32,000 nucleotides of DNA, taken from assembly GCA_963718585.1 (NCBI GenBank), contig OY970357.1:180001-212000 (forward strand), given 5' to 3'. Each line of letters begins with the position of its first letter. Position 1 is the stretch's first letter. This document shows positions 4,150-21,737 of this stretch, in pieces. The position numbers were made by a program, and so were the translations under genes. The notes beneath the pieces were generated by a model, which was given only the letters and a program-made list of their open reading frames with translations, was not told the origin of the DNA and made no database searches. Origin of the DNA: Candidatus Saccharimonadota bacterium. GTDB taxonomy: Bacteria > Patescibacteriota > Patescibacteriia > 2-12-FULL-60-25.

Positions 4150-7137
4150 ATGAAGGACCGCCTCTTCGCATCGTTCTTGGCATTTCGCGAGAAGGCCTCT
4201 TTTTGGCGCGAGCATATCCGAATGCGTGTGGATCGTTCGCCAAGCTGGACGCGGATCGGGTTGATTATCGCGACCGTTGGATTAGGTATTTCTTCTGGAG
4301 CAGAAGTCGTCCATGCGCAGGCGGCGGCTGCGGTGGTAGGTGCCGCGGCCAGTGCGATCCCGGGCGGTACCGTCTTCGCGGGATTGGTGTCCGCCATCCC
4401 TTCGGTCGGCAGTCTGATCACAAACGGACCGGCATCCATCGCCGTCGGCATCGTCTCGGTCATCCTCAACACGCTGCTCTACGTCGTCATCCAGCTCTTG
4501 CTCAAGCTGAACACGGGACTGACCTACATCCTGGTCCACGCGGCAGCGTACAACTATTTCGTGAATGCGGGCGTCGTCGTGACGGGGTGGACCCTGGTGC
4601 GCGACATCTGCAACATGTTCTTCATCGTGGTCCTGCTGATCATCGCGTTCTCCACGATCATCGGGTATCAGGAATTCCACTACAAGCGGTATCTGCCGAA
4701 GTTGCTCCTCATGGCCGTGCTGATCAATTTCTCGCGGACGCTGATCGGGCTGCTCATCGACTTCTCGCAGGTCATCACGCTGACGTTCGTCAACGGATTC
4801 CAGAACGCGGCATTCGGCAATTTCGCGAGCGCCTTCCAGCTCACGAATCTGTTGAATACGTCGAAGGACGTCTCGCAGGCGATCGCGACCGGGAATTATC
4901 AAGGTGCGGCGAGTGATCTGGGTTCGACCATGATCACCATGCTGTATGCCATCAGCGTGCTGACCATTGCCGCGACCACGATCACGATCCTGGCGCTCTA
5001 TTTCATCGTCCGCATCATCTTCCTCTGGATCCTGTTGATCCTCTCGCCGATCGCGTTCCTCATGACGGCCCTGCCCGGCAAGATGCAAAAGGCTGTTGCG
5101 CCTGCGAGTCAGGATTTTTGGAACAAATTATCCGCGTGGTTGACCGGCGGGCCCATCGTCGCGTTCTTTCTCTGGTTAGCCCTTGCGACCGTGCAAAAAG
5201 GGACGAATGATTTCGCCACGATCGTTCCGGATTCCCCGGAAGCGAACATCACGGCGAACGCGGCTTTCAGTGAGGCGAGTACGCCGACCAATATGTCGCT
5301 CTTCATCGTGTCCGTCGCCTTCATGCTCATCGGCGTGAATACGGCGGTCAGCGTTTCGCAGAAGGCGGCGCCGCAGCTTGGCGGCATTGCGGCGCGGATC
5401 AAGTCCGAAGGCGGACCGGCCGGCTATGTCGGCCGTCGTGCCGCGCGTGTGACCGGTCGTGCCGCGCGCGCCGGCGGACGGGCGAGTTTGGCGTTGGCCA
5501 GACCGTACGTCGGACAGGCTGCAGGTCAGCTTGGCTCACGCGTTCAATCTGCGGCGCCAGGATTGGCGCGGATCCCAGGGATCGGTGCGCCGCTCGCCCG
5601 CGGAGCTGCCCGTCTCGGTGGTCGCGGGATCGGGTTCGAGCGGGGTCTGCAAGCGGAAGCAGCAAAGGGATTGGGCAAAGAGACAGAATTCATGCCGCCA
5701 GAGACCGCTCTCGCGTATATGCAATCGCTTAAGCAGCGGAATCTGCCTCCGGATCAGGCGCATGCGGTCGATCGGAAGATGGCGGAGATGGCGACCAAGG
5801 GCGGGCAAAAGGCGTATATCGATCAAGCGAAAGCCGGGCTTCAGGGCCGAGGGCTCTCCGGTGATCAGCTCAATGCGGTCGCCGACGCCCAGGCTGAGGA
5901 TCGGATGCGTTCTATCATCGCCGCAGACAGCTCTAATGCCAAAGCATCGAACGATTCGAAGCGTTCTGGAGAGATCGACGAAGCGTATAAGAAGGATCCG
6001 TCCAAATACAATGACATCAAAGACATCCTCAAGTCCGTCAACGAAAATCCGGATAGTACGCGGAAGCATGATGCCTATAAGGATATGGCAGTGGTCGCAG
6101 CCGAACTCAACAAACGCGGATTCGCGGATGCGGAGTCCGGCTTGACCAAGCCGGCGAATGAGATCCTGGAAGATGACGACTTCAAGAAGATGCTCACGGG
6201 TGCACGGGGCGAATACATACGCGCAGCCATGACCGATTTCGGGACGGCGGAAGGCAATGGCCGACTGCGTCAGATCCTCGCGGCCGGGACCGAGGCGGGG
6301 TCAAAGGATGCAGGGACCGTGTCCGCCGCCAATGCTCAGCGCTACCGCATGTCCAAATCCGCAGACGGGAAGCAAATGGTCTTTGCAAATGCCGCAGGTC
6401 AGTTCGGAGGCTTTGACATGAAAGAGGTGAAGGCCGGGAGTCAGCGGGTCCGGAGCGTCCCCCAGTTGGTCGGACAGGTCAGTGATGGGGCGTTGCGTGG
6501 ACGCGCGGAACGGGCGTCGCATTCCCTTGGCGTGGATACGCCGTCACGTATCCGATCGTTCCAGCAGCCGCTCAATGAACGTCAGGCGAACGCCATGGTC
6601 AATGTCGCTCAGGCCTACAGTAATCCGCCGGCGACGACGAACGCCGCGGCGATGTCAGACTTCGCGCATGCACAGGGTGAGGCATTGGCAAGCGGTCTAC
6701 CGACCTCGGTCGCCGCGAATTATGATGATGCGACGAATACCTATCGGGATGATCAGAGTCGGTCCGCACATCTGGAAAATCTGGATTCAGCGATGGCCAA
6801 TGTCGATTCGGATGACCCGGATATTCAAAGCGCCTCCATCAGCATGGTCGCGAACACGAATGCGGATCTGTTGAAGAACGGAGGGCAGATGCGGGATGTG
6901 GTCGTGGACGCCTTGAATCGGAATGCGGACAAGGTCAGGAAACTTTTCTCCAATGCCACGAAGGAACAGGGGAAGAAGATGCAGTCGATGATGAAAGAGC
7001 TTTCCAAACAGGCAGAGGCAGTGGTCGACCGCGGCGGTCCGACGAATACAGGCGAAGAACATCTTGTGGAACTCCGTACGAAGCTCGGTGGAAAGGCCAT
7101 GCGGAACCTCGGCGGCGATTCTAACAAGAAAGCCTAG
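4150..7137 (+). CDS. VirB6/TrbL-like polytopic membrane protein with a long hydrophilic C-terminal extension (T4SS-like operon, gene 1)
   Basis: 995-aa ORF. Signal-like segment RIGLIIATVGLGISSGAEVVHAQ. Multiple long hydrophobic helices follow (e.g. MFFIVVLLIIAFSTIIG, LLLMAVLINFSRTLIGLLIDF, IFLWILLILSPIAFLM, IVAFFLWLALATV), an arrangement typical of VirB6/TrbL proteins. After about aa 415 the protein is entirely hydrophilic. Alternative start: ATG at 4222. Family assignment is by architecture and operon context, not by a search. Confidence 0.6.
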   Translation: MKDRLFASFLAFREKASFWREHIRMRVDRSPSWTRIGLIIATVGLGISSGAEVVHAQAAAAVVGAAASAIPGGTVFAGLVSAIPSVGSLITNGPASIAVGIVSVILNTLLYVVIQLLLKLNTGLTYILVHAAAYNYFVNAGVVVTGWTLVRDICNMFFIVVLLIIAFSTIIGYQEFHYKRYLPKLLLMAVLINFSRTLIGLLIDFSQVITLTFVNGFQNAAFGNFASAFQLTNLLNTSKDVSQAIATGNYQGAASDLGSTMITMLYAISVLTIAATTITILALYFIVRIIFLWILLILSPIAFLMTALPGKMQKAVAPASQDFWNKLSAWLTGGPIVAFFLWLALATVQKGTNDFATIVPDSPEANITANAAFSEASTPTNMSLFIVSVAFMLIGVNTAVSVSQKAAPQLGGIAARIKSEGGPAGYVGRRAARVTGRAARAGGRASLALARPYVGQAAGQLGSRVQSAAPGLARIPGIGAPLARGAARLGGRGIGFERGLQAEAAKGLGKETEFMPPETALAYMQSLKQRNLPPDQAHAVDRKMAEMATKGGQKAYIDQAKAGLQGRGLSGDQLNAVADAQAEDRMRSIIAADSSNAKASNDSKRSGEIDEAYKKDPSKYNDIKDILKSVNENPDSTRKHDAYKDMAVVAAELNKRGFADAESGLTKPANEILEDDDFKKMLTGARGEYIRAAMTDFGTAEGNGRLRQILAAGTEAGSKDAGTVSAANAQRYRMSKSADGKQMVFANAAGQFGGFDMKEVKAGSQRVRSVPQLVGQVSDGALRGRAERASHSLGVDTPSRIRSFQQPLNERQANAMVNVAQAYSNPPATTNAAAMSDFAHAQGEALASGLPTSVAANYDDATNTYRDDQSRSAHLENLDSAMANVDSDDPDIQSASISMVANTNADLLKNGGQMRDVVVDALNRNADKVRKLFSNATKEQGKKMQSMMKELSKQAEAVVDRGGPTNTGEEHLVELRTKLGGKAMRNLGGDSNKKA

Positions 7138-7140
7138 CCT

Positions 7141-8931
7141 ATGCCGACGAAACGGCAGTCATTCGGAGACCTGTTCGACATGCCGGATGGACTCCGGAAA
7201 TTCGTCTTATCCCAGGCATTCGAGGACGCGGACACGAACCTGCAGAAGACGTATCAGCTTACCCCGGAACAGACGACGGCGATGGGAGATGCGGTCATGG
7301 CCGCGATCTATGGACAGGATCTCGCGAGTACCATCGACACGATCAAGCAGGTCGTCGTTCCCGCCGCGCTGCCGGAAGAAAAATGGAAAACGTTCCTTGC
7401 CGATATGGTCAAACTCGAGCTGTGGCCGATCCGGGAGTTGTTCGGGTCCGAATTGACCGATGTGTTGAATCAGCATCAGATCGGGACCGGCGGTTGGCCG
7501 ACGGAGCGCGTTCTCCTCAAGCCTTTGTCGTATAGTGGCGCGGCGACCGAGACCGCATCCATGGCCGGATTCACCCTCATGGGTCCGCAGATGCGTGAAC
7601 GGTTGCGCGATCTGATCGTCAGTAAATCCAAAGGCGTTCGGACCGATGCGCAAGTCCGCGATGTCCTCACGCGTTCGGGCGATTTCGGCGGGCTTGGCCT
7701 GGATGGAGCCGGGGCCGACAAAACGCTTGCGGTCATGAACAATATCCTGTCGAGCGTGAAGGTCATGTCCGAGGATGAATATTCCTCCTGGTTGGCCGAA
7801 TCGGCGAAACCAAAGGCCGAGGTCCCCGCAGAAGAGGGGGCGGAACTGACGGAAGAAGACCAGGAGATCGCCCAGATCAAAGCGAAGATGCCGAAAGCGT
7901 CAAAAGCACCGGAGACCGTGCTCGAGCAGGCGATCGATAAGACGTTCGATCAGATCGGATATGACGTTGCAGATAATTACCTCTCCAATCGGTTGCGTCA
8001 CATCATCTCATCCCGATTCCGCGATGTGCGCACGTCGCTCGAGGTCAAACAGCTCCTCATGCGGGACTCCAAGGTCGGTGGCATGAGCTTGGATGAAGGG
8101 TTGGCCGACCGGCTCACGCATGAGATCGAGGATGCATACAAGACCTATCACGATGCGATATATAAGGAAGAGGAAGGGCGACTCGTGAAGCAAAAAGAAG
8201 AGCAGAAGATCAAGATCGATGAACGGCGTGAACGCGAGGCAAAGGAGCATGCCAAATGGTATGAGGAGCGGATCCTGGCCAAGAAAGAGACGGAGTCGAA
8301 GCAAAAAGAGTTGGCCGCGCAGATGAAGAGCACCTATCAGGCGTACATCGCGGGGCCGACGACGCCTCTCGCGGGCGCACACCCCTTGGAGGCGAAGGAA
8401 CAGCGCCGTGAGACAGAGCGATTCGGGACGATGGTCCCGGCCGCAGCCGCCGGCGCAACGGCCATTGCCGAGAAGGGGACGGCGCCAAGCACGGGCAAGG
8501 CCGCGCGACCGGAGGTGAAGGTCTCTGCGCCGACCGCGAAGCTCGCAGCCGAAGCCCCGATCGCCCTGAAACCCAAGATGCAGGACATTGCGCGCACGTC
8601 TCCCAAGCTCGTCGGTCCGGCTGAGGAGCTGCACAACATGACCCTGGCCACATTCCGGCGTCTGTCGAGCGATCCGGAGGAGGCGGCGACGAAGATCATG
8701 GAGAAGATCGATACGCTCGGACAGGAGTCGTTCGAAAAACGGTCTGCAGGGATCAAGGCTTGGCAGCAAAGTCCGTTACAGCGAGCCTATGTCTCGCTGG
8801 TAGGGGAGTCGTTCCGCTCCGGAAAGCCGGTGACCGAGATCGCGGAGCAGAAACGCACCGGGGGCGAGGATACACTGCTTCCGCCCGAGGTCGCGGCTAT
8901 CATTTCGCTCAATTCTAAGTTACACTATTGA
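7141..8931 (+). CDS. hypothetical soluble protein with a central K/E-rich coiled-coil-like segment (T4SS-like operon, gene 2)
   Basis: 596-aa ORF starting 3 nt after the gene 1 stop. No TM segment. Charged block KEEEGRLVKQKEEQKIKIDERREREAKEHAKWYEERILAKKETESKQKELAAQMK. No catalytic motif recognised. Confidence 0.7.
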   Translation: MPTKRQSFGDLFDMPDGLRKFVLSQAFEDADTNLQKTYQLTPEQTTAMGDAVMAAIYGQDLASTIDTIKQVVVPAALPEEKWKTFLADMVKLELWPIRELFGSELTDVLNQHQIGTGGWPTERVLLKPLSYSGAATETASMAGFTLMGPQMRERLRDLIVSKSKGVRTDAQVRDVLTRSGDFGGLGLDGAGADKTLAVMNNILSSVKVMSEDEYSSWLAESAKPKAEVPAEEGAELTEEDQEIAQIKAKMPKASKAPETVLEQAIDKTFDQIGYDVADNYLSNRLRHIISSRFRDVRTSLEVKQLLMRDSKVGGMSLDEGLADRLTHEIEDAYKTYHDAIYKEEEGRLVKQKEEQKIKIDERREREAKEHAKWYEERILAKKETESKQKELAAQMKSTYQAYIAGPTTPLAGAHPLEAKEQRRETERFGTMVPAAAAGATAIAEKGTAPSTGKAARPEVKVSAPTAKLAAEAPIALKPKMQDIARTSPKLVGPAEELHNMTLATFRRLSSDPEEAATKIMEKIDTLGQESFEKRSAGIKAWQQSPLQRAYVSLVGESFRSGKPVTEIAEQKRTGGEDTLLPPEVAAIISLNSKLHY

Positions 8932-9031: not shown

Positions 9032-9466
9032 ATGCCCGAAAAATTCATCGTTCCCCAATTCATCGATAAAGAGGACCAGATCCTGGGGCCGATCACGGTT
9101 CGGCAGTTTTTGATCATGCTCGTTTCGGCATTTCTCATCTTCATCTTCTATAAGCTCCTCGCATTTCCGTATTTCATCGCTTCAGCCATCCTGATCGCTG
9201 CGATCGGCGGGACGTTCGGCTTCATGAAGATCAATGGCCAGCCGTTCCACGTCTTTTTCATCAACGCCCTCCAGACCCTCACGCGTCCGGCGCTCCGGGT
9301 GTGGGACAAGACCTATAACGATGCGGAGATCCGCGCGTTCCTCGCGGTCGCACCCAGTGCTCCGGTGAAGGTCACGCCGCACAAGGAGCATCCGCCGTCG
9401 AGCCGTCTCCGCGATCTGTCACTCGTGGTGAATACGGGCGGCGTATACAAGCCGGAGGAAGAGTAG
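9032..9466 (+). CDS. PrgI-family / VirB3-like small membrane protein (T4SS-like operon, gene 3)
   Basis: 144 aa. The N-terminus MPEKFIVPQFIDKEDQILGPITVRQFLIML, followed by two TM helices, matches the PrgI-family pattern (VP.FID.E.KI.GP.T.RQF). Lies just upstream of VirB4, as in Gram-positive T4SS loci. Confidence 0.7.
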   Translation: MPEKFIVPQFIDKEDQILGPITVRQFLIMLVSAFLIFIFYKLLAFPYFIASAILIAAIGGTFGFMKINGQPFHVFFINALQTLTRPALRVWDKTYNDAEIRAFLAVAPSAPVKVTPHKEHPPSSRLRDLSLVVNTGGVYKPEEE

Positions 9467-9467
9467 T

Positions 9468-10148
9468 ATGCAAAGCAAGAAACTCGCAGGATCCAAACCG
9501 GGCGTTCCGTCTCAGCGATATCTCGATATCGCGGAGATCAAGGAAGACGTCGTGGTGATGAAGGACGGCACCATCCGTGCGGTCTTGCTCGTGTCGAGTA
9601 TCAACTTTGCGCTCAAGTCCGTGGATGAGCAGAATGCCATCGTCCAGGCGTACATGCAGTTCCTGAACTCGCTCGATTTCCCGATCCAGGTGGTCGTCCA
9701 ATCGCGGCGGATGAACATCGACGATTATCTGCGACGGCTGAGCGCGTCAGAAAAGACGCAGTCGAACGATCTTCTGCGTCGGCAGATCGCGGATTATCGC
9801 GAATACATCCGTCAACTCGTCGAACTCGGGGACATCATGCAGAAGAAGTTCTTCATCACCGTGCCGCTCGATCCGTCCACGGATAAGCAGAAGGGGTTCT
9901 TCGGGCGGCTGTCCGCGATCCTCTCGCCTGCCGCGACGATCAAATTGTCGGAAGATAAGTTCAAGAGCAATAAGCAGTCGCTCATGTTGCGGGTGAACTC
10001 GATCATCGGCGGGCTTCAGTCCATGTCGCTCAACGCCGCGATGCTCGATACGCAGAGCCTCATCGAGCTGTATTACACGGTCTACAACCCGGAACTGTTC
10101 GAAAACGAACGGATGGTCCCGACCGAGAAACTTCAAGTCGAAGGCTGA
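9468..10148 (+). CDS. hypothetical protein resembling a stand-alone VirB4 N-terminal domain (T4SS-like operon, gene 4)
   Basis: 226 aa, 1-nt gap after gene 3. No P-loop. By hand alignment it parallels the pre-ATPase region of the downstream VirB4 (see finding). Coding status is strong; function is tentative. Confidence 0.45.
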   Translation: MQSKKLAGSKPGVPSQRYLDIAEIKEDVVVMKDGTIRAVLLVSSINFALKSVDEQNAIVQAYMQFLNSLDFPIQVVVQSRRMNIDDYLRRLSASEKTQSNDLLRRQIADYREYIRQLVELGDIMQKKFFITVPLDPSTDKQKGFFGRLSAILSPAATIKLSEDKFKSNKQSLMLRVNSIIGGLQSMSLNAAMLDTQSLIELYYTVYNPELFENERMVPTEKLQVEG

Positions 10149-10151
10149 CCT

Positions 10152-12170
10152 ATGGCGATCAAGATCAAAGAGGAAAAAGGATTCGACGCTTCCGCCCTCA
10201 CCGCGGGAGGTATCGGATTGAAAAAGGGCCCCTCCAAGGCCGAGCAAAAGAAGAAGCACGACACCGAACGCGTCGCGTTGGAAGAGGAACGGGTCTATCG
10301 AAAGGGTGTCACGTCCATCAAAGACCTCATTTCGCCGAGCTCGATGAAGGTCGATCCGGGGTTCGTCCGGCTCGGTGACGTGTGGGTGCGTACGCTCTTC
10401 ATCATCACGTATCCGCGCTACGTCACGGTCGGTTGGGCATCGCCGATCATCAACCTGAACGCCCAGATGGATATCGCGATGTTCTTCTATCCCATCAAGG
10501 CGGACGTCATCCTCAAACAGCTCAAGAAGAAGGTCGGTGTGCTCGAGGCGCAGATCACCTCGGATGCCGAAGCCGGGAAGCCGCGCGATCCGATCTCTGA
10601 GACGGCGTTGCGCGACATCGAGCAGCTGCGGGACGACCTGACGCAGGGGATCGAGCATTTTTTCCAGTTCGCCTTTTACTGCACGTTCTACTCCACCTCC
10701 CTCGAGGAGCTGGAGCAGTTGTCGAACACCGTCGAATCCACATTCGGCTCCATGTTGATCTATACGAAGCGTGCGTACTTCCAGGCGGAACAGGGTTTCA
10801 ACTCCACGCTGCCCGTCGGCAATGACGAACTCATGATCACGTTCAACATGAGCACGTCGCCGCTCGCGTCGTCCTTCCCGTTCACGTCTGCGGAACTCAC
10901 GTCAGACAACGGGATCTTGTACGGGATCAACCGTCATAACAATTCGCTCATCATCTTCGACCGTTTCTCGCTCCAGAACGCCAACGCGGTCGTGTTCGCC
11001 ACCTCTGGTGCCGGGAAATCATATTTCGTGAAGCTCGAGATCCTGCGGTCGCTCATGCTTGGCGTCGATGTCATCGTCATCGATCCGGAAATGGAGTACA
11101 AGCATCTTTCTGATGCCGTGGGCGGAACGTACATCAATATCTCGCTCGCTTCCGACGCCAAGATCAATCCGTTCGACCTTCCGCGGCCGTCCGGAGAAGC
11201 GACGTCCACCGAAGACATCATCCGATCCGCGGTCATCACGATCAAAGGGCTATTACGCCTCATGCTCGGCAAGCTCACGGTCGCGGAAGACTCCATCCTT
11301 GATCGCGCGCTCCTTGAGACGTATGCGAAAAAGGACATCGTGCCGGGTGCCGACCTGACGGCCATCGAGCCGCCGATCCTGCAGGATTTCCAGGACATCC
11401 TTGAAGGGATGGAAGGCACGGGCGATCTCGTCCTGCGTTTGAAGAAATACACCGAAGGGACGTTCTCCGGCCTGTTGAACTCGCCGACGACCGTGCGCAT
11501 GAACAATCAGCTCGTCATCTTCTCGGTCCGCGATCTGGAAGATGAGCTCCGGCCGATGGCGATCTATACGATCATAAACTACATCTGGAATGTCGTGCGT
11601 TCCGAGCGGAAGAAGCGCATCCTCGCCATCGATGAGGCATGGTGGCTCATGCAGAATGAGGACTCGGCGAAATTCGTGTTCGCACTCGTCAAACGCTGCC
11701 GTAAGTATTACCTCGGTATCACGACGATCACGCAGGATGTGAATGACTTTTTGACGTCTCCATACGGCCAAGCGATCGTGACCAACTCATCCATGCAACT
11801 GTTGCTGAAGCAGTCGCCGGCATCCATCGACCTCGTCGCGCGCGTCTTCCTCCTCACACAATCCGAGAAATACCTCTTGCTCGAGTCCGGACGCGGAGAA
11901 GGGATCTTCTTTGCCGGACAAAAACACGCCGCGATCCAGGTCGTGGCGTCGTACACGGAAGATCAGATCGTGACGACCGACCCGAATCAGCTCCTCAAGA
12001 TCGAACAGGCGAAGAAAGAGTTCATCCAAGCGCTTGGTGAAGGGAGCGGAGGCGGACAAGGCGGAGGAACGCCGGCCACGGCACCACAGCCGGCTCCGGA
12101 ACCGGCGCCAACCCCAGCACCAGCACCTGAAACGCCGATCTCGGCGGAGCCGCCAACACCTGCCGTATGA
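10152..12170 (+). CDS. virB4: VirB4/PrgJ-type T4SS ATPase
   Basis: 672 aa. Walker A VVFATSGAGKSYFVK. Walker B RILAIDEAWWLM (the DEAW motif typical of VirB4/TraC/CagE). QDVNDF and LLLKQ motifs downstream. Pro/Ala-rich C-terminal tail (PATAPQPAPEPAPTPAPAPETP). Confidence 0.9.
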   Translation: MAIKIKEEKGFDASALTAGGIGLKKGPSKAEQKKKHDTERVALEEERVYRKGVTSIKDLISPSSMKVDPGFVRLGDVWVRTLFIITYPRYVTVGWASPIINLNAQMDIAMFFYPIKADVILKQLKKKVGVLEAQITSDAEAGKPRDPISETALRDIEQLRDDLTQGIEHFFQFAFYCTFYSTSLEELEQLSNTVESTFGSMLIYTKRAYFQAEQGFNSTLPVGNDELMITFNMSTSPLASSFPFTSAELTSDNGILYGINRHNNSLIIFDRFSLQNANAVVFATSGAGKSYFVKLEILRSLMLGVDVIVIDPEMEYKHLSDAVGGTYINISLASDAKINPFDLPRPSGEATSTEDIIRSAVITIKGLLRLMLGKLTVAEDSILDRALLETYAKKDIVPGADLTAIEPPILQDFQDILEGMEGTGDLVLRLKKYTEGTFSGLLNSPTTVRMNNQLVIFSVRDLEDELRPMAIYTIINYIWNVVRSERKKRILAIDEAWWLMQNEDSAKFVFALVKRCRKYYLGITTITQDVNDFLTSPYGQAIVTNSSMQLLLKQSPASIDLVARVFLLTQSEKYLLLESGRGEGIFFAGQKHAAIQVVASYTEDQIVTTDPNQLLKIEQAKKEFIQALGEGSGGGQGGGTPATAPQPAPEPAPTPAPAPETPISAEPPTPAV

Positions 12171-12775
12171 CCCGTCGCAGCAAGATCCTCATCCTCATCA
12201 TCGTCGGGATCCTTCTCCTGTTATTGGGGTTGTACATCTTCTTCCGTCCATTCCTCGTCCAGCGCACCGGACCACCGGCACAGCCGCCGACACCTGCTGG
12301 CGGAACGCCATATGTGCCTTCCGCACCGGCACAGGGTCAGCCAACAGCCGGCGGAGCGACCACGACCCAGCCGGCACAAGCGGATGACCTGTTGGCTCTT
12401 GAGCATGCTGCAAAGGCAGCAGCTGGACGTGTTGGATCAGGTTCAAACGAGAACGGCTTCCTCGGTTATCAAGACGAGTATTACGATGCCACGCCTTCGT
12501 ATCGTGCGACCCTCCTGTCTGACATGGCGGCGATGCAGAAGCTACACCCGGCAACCGGGCCGTTGTACAGTATTTCCACCTTCGCCGCGTCAGCTTCGAG
12601 TAATGATACATATGGAGATCCGACTATCGTGATGCAGGTGCAGGCGCGGCAGACCGTGACTGCGGGAAATGCCGCACCGGTCACGACATCGAAGAAGGTC
12701 GACGTGACGTTCCAACGTCAGTCTGACGGCTCCTATCTGGTCGACGACATCCAGTGGTCTGACCTGCAGTTGTAG
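12167..12775 (+). CDS. bitopic membrane protein, possible VirB8/PrgL-like component (T4SS-like operon, gene 6)
   Basis: 202 aa. The ATG overlaps the VirB4 stop (ATGA). N-terminal TM ILILIIVGILLLLLGLYIFF, then a P/A/G/Q-rich linker, then a ~120-aa globular C-terminus ending VDVTFQRQSDGSYLVDDIQW (beta-rich, NTF2-like feel). The VirB8-like call rests on position and topology only. Confidence 0.4.
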   Translation: MTRRSKILILIIVGILLLLLGLYIFFRPFLVQRTGPPAQPPTPAGGTPYVPSAPAQGQPTAGGATTTQPAQADDLLALEHAAKAAAGRVGSGSNENGFLGYQDEYYDATPSYRATLLSDMAAMQKLHPATGPLYSISTFAASASSNDTYGDPTIVMQVQARQTVTAGNAAPVTTSKKVDVTFQRQSDGSYLVDDIQWSDLQL

Positions 12776-12824: not shown

Positions 12825-12991
12825 CTTCGAATTGAACATACTTTGATACTCTCGGTAGAGGTCCTCATGAGGAAGATCCTCACGGTCGTTCCACTTCCCT
12901 CAGGATGACGCTTTTTAAGTGAATTACGTTTTTTTCTCGTTTCATCATCCACGTATTGACGACGACGCCTTTTTCATGGCAGCGGTGGTAT

Positions 12992-13705
12992 ATGGCACAT
13001 CGCGCCGTTGACCTCCTTCTCGAGACCGCGTTCCCGACGCGTTGTGTCTCCTGCCATGTCGCTGGCGCGTGGTGGTGCGGTGATTGTCAGCACGCGGTCG
13101 AGCCATTCCGCTGGAATGTGAAACAGGAAAAACTCGCTTCTGCAAAGAAAGGGGAAGCGTCAGCTCTAAGTGGTTCCGTCGCGGACGGGCTCGATGGCCT
13201 GATAGCGACCGGTTTTTATCATGATCCGCGCCTGCGCGCCGTCATCCACGCGCTCAAGTTCAACGGCGCGACCTGCGTGCTCCCAGAGATCCGCGCATAC
13301 CTCAAACAATGGGCGACAGAACGCCTTGAACCGTGGCCATGGGCCGGTGCGACGGGCCTCGCGATCCAACCGCTCATCACGAGCGTACGGCGCGATCGAT
13401 CCCGCGGATTCGATCAAGCGCGGCTCCTTGCCGGCCTGGTCCATGAGACGATCGTGCCCTGGGCCACATCCGTCGACCTCCTTCAGCGGAAAGGAGCACA
13501 CACGCCTCAATCGTCGCTCGATCCCGGTCCGCTCCGTCAGGCGAACGTCCTGGGATCCTACGACGCGATCGGTCCCGTCGCGCCGACCATTCTCCTCGTG
13601 GATGACGTGGTCACGACCGGCGCGACCATGCGCGAAGCCGCCCGCACCCTTAAAGCCACTGGCGCGGAACGCGTCTTCGGCTTTGCCATAGCCGTGGGGA
13701 AATGA
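12992..13705 (+). CDS. comFC: ComF-family competence protein (ComFC, phosphoribosyltransferase-like)
   Basis: N-terminal Cys pairs (CVSCHV...WWCGDCQ) and a C-terminal PRTase motif ILLVDDVVTTGATMREAARTLKATGA. The ORF-track start at 12956 is a TTG; the ATG at 12992 (MAHRAVDLLLETAFPTRCVSC) looks more likely. Confidence 0.85.
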   Translation: MAHRAVDLLLETAFPTRCVSCHVAGAWWCGDCQHAVEPFRWNVKQEKLASAKKGEASALSGSVADGLDGLIATGFYHDPRLRAVIHALKFNGATCVLPEIRAYLKQWATERLEPWPWAGATGLAIQPLITSVRRDRSRGFDQARLLAGLVHETIVPWATSVDLLQRKGAHTPQSSLDPGPLRQANVLGSYDAIGPVAPTILLVDDVVTTGATMREAARTLKATGAERVFGFAIAVGK

Positions 13706-14882: not shown

Positions 14883-15647
14883 TTATTTTACGATTCTTTT
14901 TAAATTGCGCACCAACTTATCCTTCCCTCCAGACACTCTTGTTAAAAACGGGAGACCGATAAATTCATAACGTCCGTCAATTTTACCAAGGCTAAAATTG
15001 TATTTGTCTTCAAAATGAATCACTTTTTTAAATTCTGGCTTTACTAGATAAGGTTTAAGCGTTGGGAAGCCTACAATGAAAATAGTTTTTTTTGGATTAA
15101 TATGACGGATGATCTTTAAAAGAATTTCGAAATAAATTTCACGATATTTCGTTAGATCATTGATTCGTAGGCCTGCTGCATCGGATGAGTGATATGGTAT
15201 GAATTCAAGCGCGATAACATTTTTCTGAAACCACTCCCAATCAATTTTCTCCTTTATTCCATCGTAGCGTTTGAGAAAGCCTTTGATATTTGCGTAATAA
15301 GGGATCAGTCCAGGTTTGCTGTAATGAAAGTCCGAAAAGAGATGACAGTAACCGTTAAAAAGACCCCGTCTTTTAAGATAGGCATTTTCTAAACTGTTGT
15401 TACTGTTATAGCCTGGATTAATGCCTATAAAAATGTACTTGTCCCTTGGGTTCGTGATATCTCCAATAAAATAAGTGGGGTAGACAGGATAACGTGGGAA
15501 GATCCCAAAATCAGTATTTATGTCTTCAAATGTTGAACCCTTTAAAAAATTTTTATTAGTAAAGCGAAGCTCTTCAAGCTGTAGCAGTTTTTTTATGAAA
15601 TCTATGCCCTTAAGCTTTGCGATCTTTTTATATTGAGCAGAGTTCAT
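14883..15647 (-). CDS. hypothetical protein (orphan, low-GC island)
   Basis: 254-aa intact ORF rich in K/N/I/F/Y. Contains YIFIGINPGYNS and later ALEFIPYHSS. These are faintly reminiscent of UDG-superfamily motifs A/B (GINPG ... HPS-like), but the spacing is atypical. Confidence 0.7.
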   Translation of the reverse strand: MNSAQYKKIAKLKGIDFIKKLLQLEELRFTNKNFLKGSTFEDINTDFGIFPRYPVYPTYFIGDITNPRDKYIFIGINPGYNSNNSLENAYLKRRGLFNGYCHLFSDFHYSKPGLIPYYANIKGFLKRYDGIKEKIDWEWFQKNVIALEFIPYHSSDAAGLRINDLTKYREIYFEILLKIIRHINPKKTIFIVGFPTLKPYLVKPEFKKVIHFEDKYNFSLGKIDGRYEFIGLPFLTRVSGGKDKLVRNLKRIVK

Positions 15648-15673: not shown

Positions 15674-16816
15674 TCAACGATCCGTACTTCCACTCGGAAT
15701 TTTTTCAAGATCACTGTCCGTAATTCCGAGACCGAGGTAGCGCATGATCTGATAGGCAGCGTCGCCATCTTTCATATAAATACGACGGCACTTGGATGGA
15801 TCGACATACCACGCCTCACCGTGTTGTTGAATCTGTAACAGGATCTTACCTTTGGTCTGCTTTGCGAGGCTATTTGAAGCACAGACACTTGTAGCGTCTT
15901 TCATACTTTGTGTATCAGCGACGATCGGGATCTTTGCGAGGTCTGTATCTGTGATGCCGAGTCCGAATGATCGCATCATGCTGTACGCAACCGCTCCATC
16001 ACGCATGTAATAACGTGTCTGGTCTGCTGGATTGATGTACCACGCTTCGCCGTGATCTTGGACTTGAAGAGGATTTGTCCAGAAAGTCTGTTGATGAGCG
16101 TTGAATCTTTTTTAAGAGGATCAAAGCTACCATGAATTGGAAAAGCAGCTGAATTAAATGTTACCTCGTTTGAAGTAACATTTGTTTGGTTTGGGATTGT
16201 TGATACCGTTGGCCAGCGTATTTGATAGCCTGGGATATGCTTCTGGATCGACATTGCAGTTAAGCGAGATGTTTTGGTAAAGATAATCAAACGAGTGGGT
16301 ATTTAGGACCCCCAAAGCAAGTATCTCTTCTCGTGTGTCATCAACTGGGACGCCACAATATTTAATATTTTCATTTTCAATAAGTTGTTGGATTTGAGGA
16401 CCACTATAATCTTCACATGTACTTCCATTCCAAATTTCGGCGTTTAGGCATTGGCAAACATCGTTGTCTGCTATCCGCATACCCTTTTTACAGGTTGGGT
16501 CGAATTTAAGAGCCGTAACGAAATAGTTGTTCTGGACACAATCGCTGAAAGTAGCCTGATCGCCTGATAAGAGATTCCTACAATAAGAAAGCGCTATGTC
16601 TGTAAGTTGTTGATCTAGAGTAAGGTCGCAGGAGTTTAGAATTGAAACTGAACTATCTGGCCACCCATCATTGCAAATAACCGAAAGATCATTCAAATCA
16701 AATGTACTGCAGTTTACCCCTTGGTGAGATGAGCATGCTCCCGATGTGGCATGGGCGATCGGAATATAAAAGAACAGCGCTATTAAGCTAAGCGAGGCGT
16801 ATTTCAAGCGGTTCAT
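15674..16816 (-). pseudogene. secreted Cys-rich protein with two C-terminal GEAWY-type repeats, broken by two 1-nt frameshifts
   Basis: Three overlapping ORFs in different frames (16154-16843, 15976-16290, 15674-16006) join into one protein. Signal peptide MNRLKYASLSLIALFFYIPIAHA. Cys-rich region GACSSHQGVNCS...VICNDGWPDSSV. Two repeats ...Q(V/I)Q(D/Q)HGEAWY(I/V)(N/D)P..(T/C)R(Y/R)(Y/I)M(R/K)DG.AAY.(M/I)MR..GLGITD(T/S)DL.KIP. Frame breaks lie near 16165-16185 (CCCAAACCAAACAAA tract) and 16070-16080. The ATG at 16816 is preferred over the TTG at 16843. Confidence 0.7.
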
Positions 16817-16832
16817 AGGGCTATCTAGACCC

Positions 16833-16838
16833 AGTATA
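16833..16838 (-). promoter_or_regulatory. -10 box TATACT (GGGTATACT) for the Cys-rich gene
   Basis: Minus strand reads TTGGGTATACT, then 18 nt, then the ATG at 16816. Same hexamer as the TGGTATACT promoters. Confidence 0.45.
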
Positions 16839-16867
16839 CCCAATATCTACAGACGACGCATAAAGTC

Positions 16868-19211: not shown

Positions 19212-19773
19212 GGCCGAGGAGATACACGGCTGTGAAGATGAAGATCCAGACGAGGTCGAGGAAGTGCCAGAAGAGGCTGAAGCGCTGGAGACGTGAGACC
19301 ACGAACCGGCTAAGTCCGCGGATCCGGATCTGCATCATACCCACGAACATCCAGAGGAGACCGAGGGTGATATGGAGACCGTGCGCACCCACGAGTGTGA
19401 AGAAGGAGGAGAGGAACGCGTTGCGCTGGGGGCCGTTGCCGGTGGTGATGAGATGCGCGAATTCTGAAAGCTCGAGTCCGAGAAAGGCCGCGCCCAAAAG
19501 GAATGTCACCGCAAGCCACGCGACCGCGTGATCCGCGCGCTTTTTTCCGATCGCGAGCATGGCGAGACTGCTCGTGAGACTGCTCGTGAGGAGGGCGAGC
19601 GTCTCCCAGAGCGCGTTGGTGAGGTTGAGGAGATCGCCGGCGCCCGGGCCGCCGAACGTCGCGCCACGTAGGACGGCGTACGATGCGAAGAGCACCGCGA
19701 ACATGAGCAGGTCGGTCAGGAGGAAGACCCAGAATCCGAAGGCTAATTTTTCCGATCGGGCATCCGTGGTCAT
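19201..19773 (-). CDS. cyoC: quinol oxidase subunit III
   Basis: 190 aa. FGFWVFLLTDLLMFAVLFASYAVL and the C-terminal FWHFLDLVWIFIFTAVY are typical of CyoC/COX3. Confidence 0.9.
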   Translation of the reverse strand: MTTDARSEKLAFGFWVFLLTDLLMFAVLFASYAVLRGATFGGPGAGDLLNLTNALWETLALLTSSLTSSLAMLAIGKKRADHAVAWLAVTFLLGAAFLGLELSEFAHLITTGNGPQRNAFLSSFFTLVGAHGLHITLGLLWMFVGMMQIRIRGLSRFVVSRLQRFSLFWHFLDLVWIFIFTAVYLLGHVR

Positions 19774-21737
19774 ACACGTTTCGCTTCAAGCCGCTTCACC
19801 TCTGCGGCCGTGAGGATATATTCCGTGTCATCGTCGAACGAGCGGGCGATGAGGCATGCGACGATGCCCCCGAAGCCAAGCACCGCAAGCCAGAGGATGT
19901 GCCAGACGAGAGCGAATCCGAGGAGGAGTGCGAAGCCCGCGATGTACATGCCGAGCGGGGTGTTCCGGGCCATGACGATGTCTTCGTATCTTGTCGGTGC
20001 CTTGTCCAGGCCCTTTTTCTTCATCTCCCAGAATGCGTCGCGGCACGTGACGCGCGGCGTGACGGCAAAGCTGTAGAACGGCGGAGGGGAGGGGACGGAC
20101 CATTCGAGCGTGCGGCCGTTCCACGGATCACCGGTCGTATCGCGATGCTGCTTCCGTTCCTTCACGCTCACGACGATCTGGATGATCTGTGTGATCGCAC
20201 CGAGCGTCAGCACGCAGATACCTACTGCGGCCGTGATGAAGAGCGGCTGATATCCGGACGAGGCGGCGTAGTGGTCGAGGCGCCGATTCGCCCCCATGGC
20301 GCCGAGGATGTAGAGCGGGCCGAAGGAGAGGAAAAAGCCGAAAAGCCAGAGCCAGAACGCGCGCTTGCCCCAGCGTTCATTCAACGTGAAGCCGAAGACC
20401 TTGGGGAACCAGTACGTGATCCCCGCGAAGATACCGAAGAGCGCGACGCCAACGATCATGGTGTGGAAGTGCGCGACGAGGAAAAGCGTGTTGTGGAGCT
20501 GGTAGTCCGCGGTCGGAGAGGCGAGGAGCGCGCCCGCCATGCCACCGAACGTGAAGAGTGCGGCGAATCCCAGGAACCAGTACATGGGCGTGAAGAAGCG
20601 GATGCGTCCCCGCCACATGGTCATGATCCAGTTGAAGACCTGGACGCCGGCGGGGATCGCGATGAGCATGGTCGAGAGGCCGAAGATGAGGTTCACGTCC
20701 GAGCCTGCGCCCATGGTGAAGAAGTGGTGGAGCCATACGAGCGTCGCGATGAAGGTGACCCCGATCGCGGCGAGGACCATGGAGACATAGCCGAAGACGC
20801 GTTTTTGCGAGAATGTTGCAACCACCTCGGAGAAGATGCCGAAGGAGGGGAGCACGAGGATATATACCTCCGGATGGCCCCACATCCAGATGAGGTTCAC
20901 ATACATCATGGGGTTGCCGCCTGCGCCGGTGGTGAAGAAATGCATACCGAAGAACCGGTCGAGCCAGATGAGGAGCGTTGTGACCGTGAGCACGGGGAAC
21001 GCGGCCGTGATGAGTGCCGAGGCGCAGAGCGATGTCCAGGTGAATAAGGGCATCCGCATGAGCTTCATGCCTGGCGCGCGCATCTTGAGGATCGTGACGA
21101 AAAAGTTCAGTCCCGTGAGTAGGCTGCCGAGGCCGGAGATCTGTAGGCTCCAGACCCAGTAATCCACGCCAGGACCCGGGCTATATGCGAGCTCGGCGAG
21201 CGGCGGGAGCGAGAGCCAGCCTGTGGCCGCGAACGATCCGCCGAAGACGAAAAAGAGATTGATGAGGATCGCGCCCGCGACATAGAGCCAGAAGCCGACG
21301 GAGTTGAGGAACGGGAAGGCGAGGTCCCGTGCGCCGATCTGGAGCGGGACGATGAGGTTCATGAGTCCCACGATGAGGCCCATGGTGACGAAAAAGACCA
21401 TGACATCCCCATGGGCAGTGAAGATCTGCTGGAAGTGTGCAGACGTGAGGTAACCGTGCGATGCGCCGGACGACATCGCTTGTTGGAACCAGATCATGGC
21501 CGCGTCGATGAGCCCGCGGAAGAACATGAGCCCAGCGACGATGATGTACATGACCCCGATCTTCTTCGGATCAGTCGCGGTCAACCACTCTTTCCAAAGC
21601 CGTCTCCACTTCCTCTTCGCCGTGAGGAACCACGCCGCAGCCGCGAGCATCGCGATGATCGATGCCGTGCCCCCGACCGTGTACCAATGGTGAGGCAGGG
21701 CATCAAGTGTCAGGTTGCCGAAGAGGAAATGCCACAT
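19770..21737 (-). CDS. cyoB: heme-copper quinol oxidase subunit I
   Basis: 655 aa. HCO signatures WGHPEVYILVLP, WLHHFFTMGAG, VAHFHTMIV. C-terminal GDPWNGRTLEWSVPSPPPFYSF as in CyoB. Confidence 0.95.
   Translation of the reverse strand: MWHFLFGNLTLDALPHHWYTVGGTASIIAMLAAAAWFLTAKRKWRRLWKEWLTATDPKKIGVMYIIVAGLMFFRGLIDAAMIWFQQAMSSGASHGYLTSAHFQQIFTAHGDVMVFFVTMGLIVGLMNLIVPLQIGARDLAFPFLNSVGFWLYVAGAILINLFFVFGGSFAATGWLSLPPLAELAYSPGPGVDYWVWSLQISGLGSLLTGLNFFVTILKMRAPGMKLMRMPLFTWTSLCASALITAAFPVLTVTTLLIWLDRFFGMHFFTTGAGGNPMMYVNLIWMWGHPEVYILVLPSFGIFSEVVATFSQKRVFGYVSMVLAAIGVTFIATLVWLHHFFTMGAGSDVNLIFGLSTMLIAIPAGVQVFNWIMTMWRGRIRFFTPMYWFLGFAALFTFGGMAGALLASPTADYQLHNTLFLVAHFHTMIVGVALFGIFAGITYWFPKVFGFTLNERWGKRAFWLWLFGFFLSFGPLYILGAMGANRRLDHYAASSGYQPLFITAAVGICVLTLGAITQIIQIVVSVKERKQHRDTTGDPWNGRTLEWSVPSPPPFYSFAVTPRVTCRDAFWEMKKKGLDKAPTRYEDIVMARNTPLGMYIAGFALLLGFALVWHILWLAVLGFGGIVACLIARSFDDDTEYILTAAEVKRLEAKRV

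Follow-up and report, generated by a model that had tools for sequence, protein, structure and literature searches.

Introduction

Type IV secretion systems (T4SSs) have VirB4 as their signature ATPase. Here, we describe a VirB4 locus of a Candidatus Saccharimonadota bacterium in which a small open reading frame at 9468-10148 (ORF1) stands immediately ahead of a VirB4 ATPase gene at 10152-12170 (ORF2). Positions are those of the window, by which we mean the whole 32,000-nucleotide (nt) stretch of contig OY970357.1 that was analysed; the source genome is a single 1.08-Mb contig with completeness rated at 100%. We conclude that VirB4 is very probably encoded here by two adjacent cistrons, with the TrsD/TraD-family ORF1 supplying the first module of the VirB4 N-terminal domain (N1), and ORF2 supplying the second module (N2) together with the ATPase domain.

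Conjugative plasmids of the pGO1/pSK41 type belong to the MPF-FATA subclass. Their staphylococcal TrsD/TraD and TrsE/TraE proteins (NF041427) are encoded in the same order as our pair and are near-identical to it in size (227 + 670 vs. 226 + 672 amino acids, aa). However, those pairs belong to plasmid-borne conjugation systems, whereas our locus is a chromosomal cluster, and sequence identity is only ~20%. Closer still are the TrsD-VirB4 pairs of Patescibacteria (Quinonero-Coronel et al., Microb Genom 2025, PMC12102498). The passages of that paper on which we draw rank TrsD first in abundance among the T4SS components found in this phylum, count 2,272 TrsD homologues, 1,664 of them adjoining virB4, report the gene as essential in Ca. 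Southlakia epibionticum ML1, and state a remote homology of TrsD to the N-terminal portion of VirB4. The same passages assign no function to TrsD, nor do they state that the accompanying VirB4 is without that portion or that the two halves resemble each other. Our locus shares with these loci the family, the phylum, the gene position, and the chromosomal T4SS cluster with PrgI/VirB3. As far as those passages go, we see no essential difference, and the locus is one more instance of a TrsD-VirB4 pair already catalogued in Patescibacteria and known from pGO1/pSK41-type plasmids.

Two further comparisons concern gene boundaries. In fused VirB4s, such as TrwK of R388 (PDB 7O41/8RTD) and the 797-aa CD1110-family VirB4 of E. 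gilvus pCR1C, the whole protein is collinear with ORF1 plus ORF2, and the ATPase domain and Walker A motif are conserved in both arrangements. Unlike in the fused proteins, the polypeptide here is cut between the first and second N-domain modules. In some MPF-T systems, VirB3 and VirB4 are themselves fused (Guglielmini et al. 2014, PMC4027160), and gene boundaries around VirB3 and the VirB4 N-domain are likewise evolutionarily plastic there. That case is a fusion of neighbors, while ours runs in the opposite direction, as a fission of VirB4.

Two genes that probably make one VirB4 together

The features of the locus, all on the forward strand, are as follows:

9032-9466, forward strand: PrgI/VirB3-like small membrane protein, 144 aa, Pfam PF12666, directly upstream of ORF1
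9468-10148, forward strand: ORF1, TrsD/TraD-family protein, probable N1 module of the VirB4 N-domain, 226 aa
10140-10154, forward strand: ORF1/ORF2 junction, read directly from the sequence, with a Shine-Dalgarno (SD)-like GAAGG, TGA stop, CCT spacer, and ATG
10152-12170, forward strand: ORF2, short VirB4, probable N2 module plus ATPase domain, 672 aa
10344-10772, forward strand: probable N2 module, ORF2 residues ~65-207, the region that the original prediction aligned with ORF1
10896-11975, forward strand: VirB4 ATPase (C-terminal) domain of ORF2
10998-11021, forward strand: Walker A of ORF2, residues 283-290

ORF1 runs from ATG to TGA and encodes 226 aa without a Walker A motif or P-loop. 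The gene upstream of it was confirmed as PrgI/VirB3-like by a PF12666 match (E 1.3e-8, 35.7 bits, cut-off 27) and the gene downstream as VirB4 by NF045971, so that ORF1 does lie between the two, as originally predicted. This is the layout of TrsD/TraD loci: a P-loop-less protein of ~200-300 aa between a PrgI/VirB3-like gene and a VirB4 of ~620-700 aa.

ORF2 belongs to the VirB4 family. It scored 351 bits against NF045971 (CD1110 VirB4, cut-off 325), carries the Walker A motif, and matched the ATPase domain of T. pseudethanolicus VirB4 (4AG5) over residues 249-608 (E 3.5e-47). It was first taken for a full-length VirB4, and this description has to be withdrawn. Ahead of its P-loop, ORF2 is ~170 residues shorter than TrwK and the E. 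gilvus VirB4, and by its alignments it lacks the N-terminal ~170-215 positions of fused VirB4s. At its other end, ORF2 has a Pro/Ala-rich, low-confidence tail (~12020-12170).

ORF1, in turn, is a member of the TrsD/TraD family. PF26593 (TraC-like) is recorded for the ORF1 protein itself and for all 120 of its homologues among the matches listed, and the nearest ESM Atlas clusters are 94-100% PF26593. The ORF1 profile aligned with S. aureus TraD over its whole length (hhalign, 175 columns, E 1.6e-5, probability 79%). Among database proteins, those nearest to ORF1 carry the names Candidatus Uhrbacteria or Patescibacteria, and a large protein collection contains 5,989 matches to ORF1 with lengths of 124-396 aa. 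Three longer proteins (569, 435, and 443 aa) combine the PF26593 module with extra sequence and, by their Pfam record, are not fused VirB4s.

ORF1 is also homologous to the N-terminal domain of VirB4. On VirB4 family models it matched N-terminal positions only (10-116, 18-171, and 15-128), with 17-34 bits against cut-offs of 325-957. Since it has no P-loop and scores below these cut-offs, ORF1 alone does not qualify for the VirB4 ATPase families (TIGR00929/NF045971), and it would be a piece of the VirB4 N-domain rather than a VirB4 ATPase. PDB sequence searches with ORF1 and with its 82-sequence profile returned no VirB4; only the fold search did so, finding ORF1 structurally similar to the VirB4 N-domain (R388 TrwK residues 15-400). 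The prediction of a stand-alone, P-loop-less protein derived from the VirB4 N-terminal domain was thus borne out by family models and by fold similarity to TrwK.

The two products map onto fused VirB4s in a complementary and collinear manner. In the NF045971 model, ORF1 residues 24-128 correspond to positions 10-116 and ORF2 residues 38-591 to positions 170-730; in TIGR00929, ORF1 takes positions 18-171 and ORF2 then takes 266-729; and the same order was found in NF045975. When the fused 797-aa E. gilvus VirB4 was compared with each profile by hhalign, the ORF1 profile aligned at 26-133, and ORF2 residues 55-594 aligned at 216-777 (probability 99.9%). Judged from these alignments, ORF1 would fill positions ~10-130 of a fused VirB4 and ORF2 would run from ~170-216 onward. 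An AlphaFold 2 model of a read-through ORF1 + ORF2 product was likewise collinear with R388 TrwK/VirB4 residues 20-783. The cut itself is flanked by ~135 poorly conserved, low-confidence residues (the ORF1 tail and ORF2 residues 1-54). ORF1 corresponds to N1 and ORF2 starts at N2; both genes would jointly make one VirB4.

This mapping also bears on the interpretation first offered for ORF1, namely an additional N-domain paralogue beside a complete VirB4, serving, between VirB3/VirB8 and VirB4, as an adaptor or as a subunit that sets stoichiometry. The copy number of such a free subunit need not, in principle, equal that of the ATPase, and ORF1 does resemble the pre-ATPase part of ORF2, both by profile (a score of 42 vs. 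a null of 15 ± 2.6, detailed below) and in the order of secondary-structure elements. Fused VirB4s, however, hold both modules in tandem. It is the two halves of a single VirB4 that resemble each other, rather than a complete protein and an additional copy. ORF2 is itself incomplete, starting at ~170-216 of fused VirB4s and ~170 residues shorter ahead of its P-loop, and ORF1 maps to those missing N-terminal positions rather than to the part that ORF2 retains. The complementary mapping therefore largely refutes the extra-paralogue interpretation, which we now regard as quite improbable.

Some results weigh against assigning ORF1 and ORF2 to one divided VirB4. The match of ORF1 to the fused E. 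gilvus VirB4 was weak (E 0.013) and covered residues ~11-129 only, and its E-values on the NCBIfam VirB4 models (7e-9 to 8e-4) all came with scores far under the full-length cut-offs. Against the NCBIfam TrsD model NF041427, ORF1 reached 23.6 bits with a cut-off of 200; therefore, we regard it as a distant superfamily member and not an equivalog. VIA-align placed ORF1 on TrwK 5-409, a range that marks the first and last aligned residues only and does not delimit the exact segment. Finally, the read-through AlphaFold 2 model had a predicted template-modeling score of 0.40 and a root-mean-square deviation of ~11 Å to TrwK, and the packing of N1 against N2 was not predicted. Because there was no confident N1-N2 packing, we used this model for collinearity and per-module folds only.

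Conservation of the split

ORF1 and ORF2 share a reading frame in this genome (GGC TGA CCT ATG), with the TGA stop at 10146-10148, then CCT, then the ORF2 ATG at 10152-10154, leaving a gap of 3 nt. The GAAGG lies at 10140-10144, within the last codons of ORF1 and 7 nt before the ATG. Such a junction could be read as a single VirB4 gene broken by an assembly error or a recent nonsense mutation, or as one whose TGA is read through or recoded to give a 900-aa protein, given that only this TGA and one codon separate two ORFs that share a frame. We consider this extremely unlikely, since the split is conserved in relatives while the details of the junction are not.

An ORF1 homologue was found in 58 of the 61 related genomes searched, covering 23 of the 25 families of the class, and in these genomes its open frame always ends near residue 226. 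This 226-aa length is maintained down to 72% identity across independent assemblies. We compared the junction in the 49 related loci in which both genes were readable. ORF1 homologues ended with TAA (38 loci), TGA (7), or TAG (4); the relative frame of the second gene was 0, 1, or 2 in 16, 15, and 18 loci; and the intergenic gap ranged from -11 to 176 nt, with a median of ~5 nt. An SD-like 4-mer preceded the second gene in 20 of the 49. Because both stop codon and frame vary among these relatives, the shared frame and the TGA seen here are coincidental. Synteny is conserved as well, with a PrgI-like gene directly upstream and on the same strand in 49/49 loci, and those ORF2 homologues that were complete in the loci fetched had lengths of 611-666 aa. 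No fused relative was found among proteins longer than 396 aa, and the best 150 cluster representatives were all ≤443 aa.

TGA recoding was rejected in particular, given the three different stop codons in relatives and the fact that, of the window's 20 main ORFs, 10 end in TGA, conserved genes included. The original prediction had itself named a single gene, divided only through faulty assembly, as the outcome that would overturn it, and on this count the result was negative, with the position of the stop conserved and its codon and frame relation variable. By comparison of these loci, then, the pair is a natural and old split and not an assembly error, a pseudogene, or a case of TGA recoding.

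Two relatives differed from this pattern. One carries its TrsD homologue in two successive parts (residues 1-92 and 84-225) at 5281-6011 of its contig, and another retains only an 87-aa open frame at 7319-7558. These fragmented homologues may reflect frameshifts, assembly breaks, or decay.

The same arrangement on Bacillota plasmids

Pairs of this kind also occur on plasmids of Bacillota, which we located by tblastn of ORF2 against plasmids followed by annotation of the matches:

S. aureus plasmid (pSK41-type): TraD, 227 aa, and TraE, 670 aa
Pontibacillus plasmid: 274 + 621 aa
B. thuringiensis plasmid: PrgI, then 210 + 630 aa
L. brevis plasmid: 219 + 671 aa
B. cereus plasmid: PrgI, then 304 + 699 aa
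Virgibacillus pLS20-type plasmid NZ_CP017963.1: 206 aa (781-1398) and a 641-aa VirB4-like ATPase

The order of PrgI, small gene, and VirB4 was present on the S. aureus, B. thuringiensis, and B. cereus plasmids, and, in addition to S. aureus TraD, the ORF1 profile recognized the small proteins encoded by the B. thuringiensis (E 1.8e-12) and Pontibacillus (E 1.6e-34) plasmids. The Virgibacillus 206-aa protein had no match to the TrsD profile; on that plasmid, the TrsD position is kept with a sequence not recognizable as TrsD.

ORF1 had initially been described as an unusual T4SS component. Its presence in 58/61 relatives, the 5,989 matching proteins, the Bacillota plasmids, and the publication of the family as TrsD all speak to the contrary. 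A two-gene VirB4 is normal in the ultra-small Patescibacteria and in some Gram-positive plasmids, and was already published in 2025.

Resemblance between N1 and N2

The original prediction also held that ORF1 mirrors the pre-ATPase part of ORF2 segment by segment. As a pairwise claim, this did not survive. BLASTP of the two single sequences gave an E-value of 20, their Smith-Waterman z was 0.4 against 500 shuffles, and the four proposed segment pairs contained 21 identities in 112 positions, which is the chance level. A first pair of ORF1-family and ORF2-family profiles, built from Patescibacteria only, reached an hhalign probability of just 0.1%, with an ORF2 alignment that was too uniform (effective number of sequences ~2).

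By contrast, once the profiles were made more diverse by adding Bacillota members to both alignments, hhalign placed ORF1 64-215 on ORF2 94-240 in the register of the second to fourth proposed segments (score 41.6, P 1.2e-4, probability 55%). Against the N-terminal 260 residues of ORF2 alone, the score was 42.2 (P 1.8e-5, probability 78%). Reversed-profile controls scored 13.8 and 16.1, and 150 block shuffles gave 15.1 ± 2.6 with a maximum of 25.1, which puts the real score ~10 standard deviations above the null. The score stayed at 36-43 when any single Bacillota row was dropped, and Bacillota-only profiles scored 30.3 (P 0.0013). Mixed pairs with one low-diversity side were weak (P 0.04 and 0.42), with top matches in the same register. 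What remains of the predicted mirror is thus a profile-level match in the register of segments 2-4, at a score of ~42.

Structure prediction was in line with this match up to a point. The predicted secondary-structure elements come in the same order in N1 and N2, and both modules have a predicted leading beta-hairpin and a predicted helical hairpin between the second and third core strands. However, a shuffle of element order was not significant (z 1.2), so the secondary-structure resemblance alone proves nothing.

We lean slightly toward the explanation that the VirB4 N-domain arose by ancient tandem duplication of a single alpha/beta module, and that the gene was split at the repeat boundary. 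The proposed repeat, as modeled, would begin with a beta-hairpin and continue into a ferredoxin-like beta-alpha-beta-beta-alpha-beta core that carries an inserted helical hairpin. If the duplication is true, TrsD would be a free-standing repeat unit of the membrane-docking domain of the motor. The alternative is convergence, in which N1 and N2 are alpha/beta modules without a shared origin that happen to have a very common fold, and no duplication took place. This is a serious contender, if somewhat short of probable in our estimation. The ferredoxin-like fold is among the commonest folds, and the non-significant element-order shuffle, the weakness of the less diverse profile pairs, and hhalign probabilities of only 55-78% all fit convergence. 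It accounts less readily for a score so far over both the block-shuffle null and the reversed controls, which was robust to leaving out Bacillota rows, for three independent profile pairs whose top matches agree in a collinear register, or for the same extra elements in both modules, namely the leading beta-hairpin and the inserted helical hairpin.

We found no statement of an internal duplication of VirB4 in the literature searched, and the N1/N2 repeat relationship is the only possibly new point of this analysis. Were the repeats confirmed on the solved TrwK structure, they would explain the site of the cut and bear on the origin of the VirB4 N-domain.

Proposed role of the divided N-domain

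Taken with the favored assignment of N1 to ORF1 and of N2 and the ATPase domain to ORF2, the 3-nt gap and the SD-like GAAGG suggest co-transcription of the two genes and coupled translation, which would yield their products in similar amounts. The products may then associate non-covalently and rebuild a complete VirB4 N-domain. In R388, the VirB4 N-domain mediates dimerization, is wrapped by VirB3, and binds VirB8 tails, and these VirB3 and VirB8-tail contacts anchor the ATPase hexamer at the membrane (PMC9259494). Through the complementarity described above, TrsD would gain a concrete role, that of N1 in the membrane-docking domain of the motor.

Other genes of the window

The T4SS operon includes two large forward-strand genes upstream of the PrgI-like gene, at 4150-7137 (995 aa) and 7141-8931 (596 aa), neither of which had a Pfam match at E ≤ 0.1. 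Downstream of ORF2, the start of a 202-aa forward-strand ORF (12167-12775) overlaps the ORF2 stop by 4 nt (ATGA); its product has a single hydrophobic segment, at the N-terminus, and matched no Pfam family. This ORF is followed at 12956-13705 by a phosphoribosyltransferase-domain (ComF-like) gene.

Between ~14850 and 17000, G+C content falls to 0.39-0.44, compared to 0.55-0.63 elsewhere in the window, and two minus-strand ORFs in this stretch (14883-15647 and 16154-16843) had no Pfam match. The stretch looks like a foreign island. Farther on, the minus strand at 19770-21737 encodes subunit I of a heme-copper oxidase, with 654 aa and a match to Pfam COX1 (E 3e-136). Patescibacterial genomes of such size are usually without respiratory chains, which makes an oxidase in this 1.08-Mb genome noteworthy and raises the question of whether it serves in oxygen scavenging or is an acquired gene.
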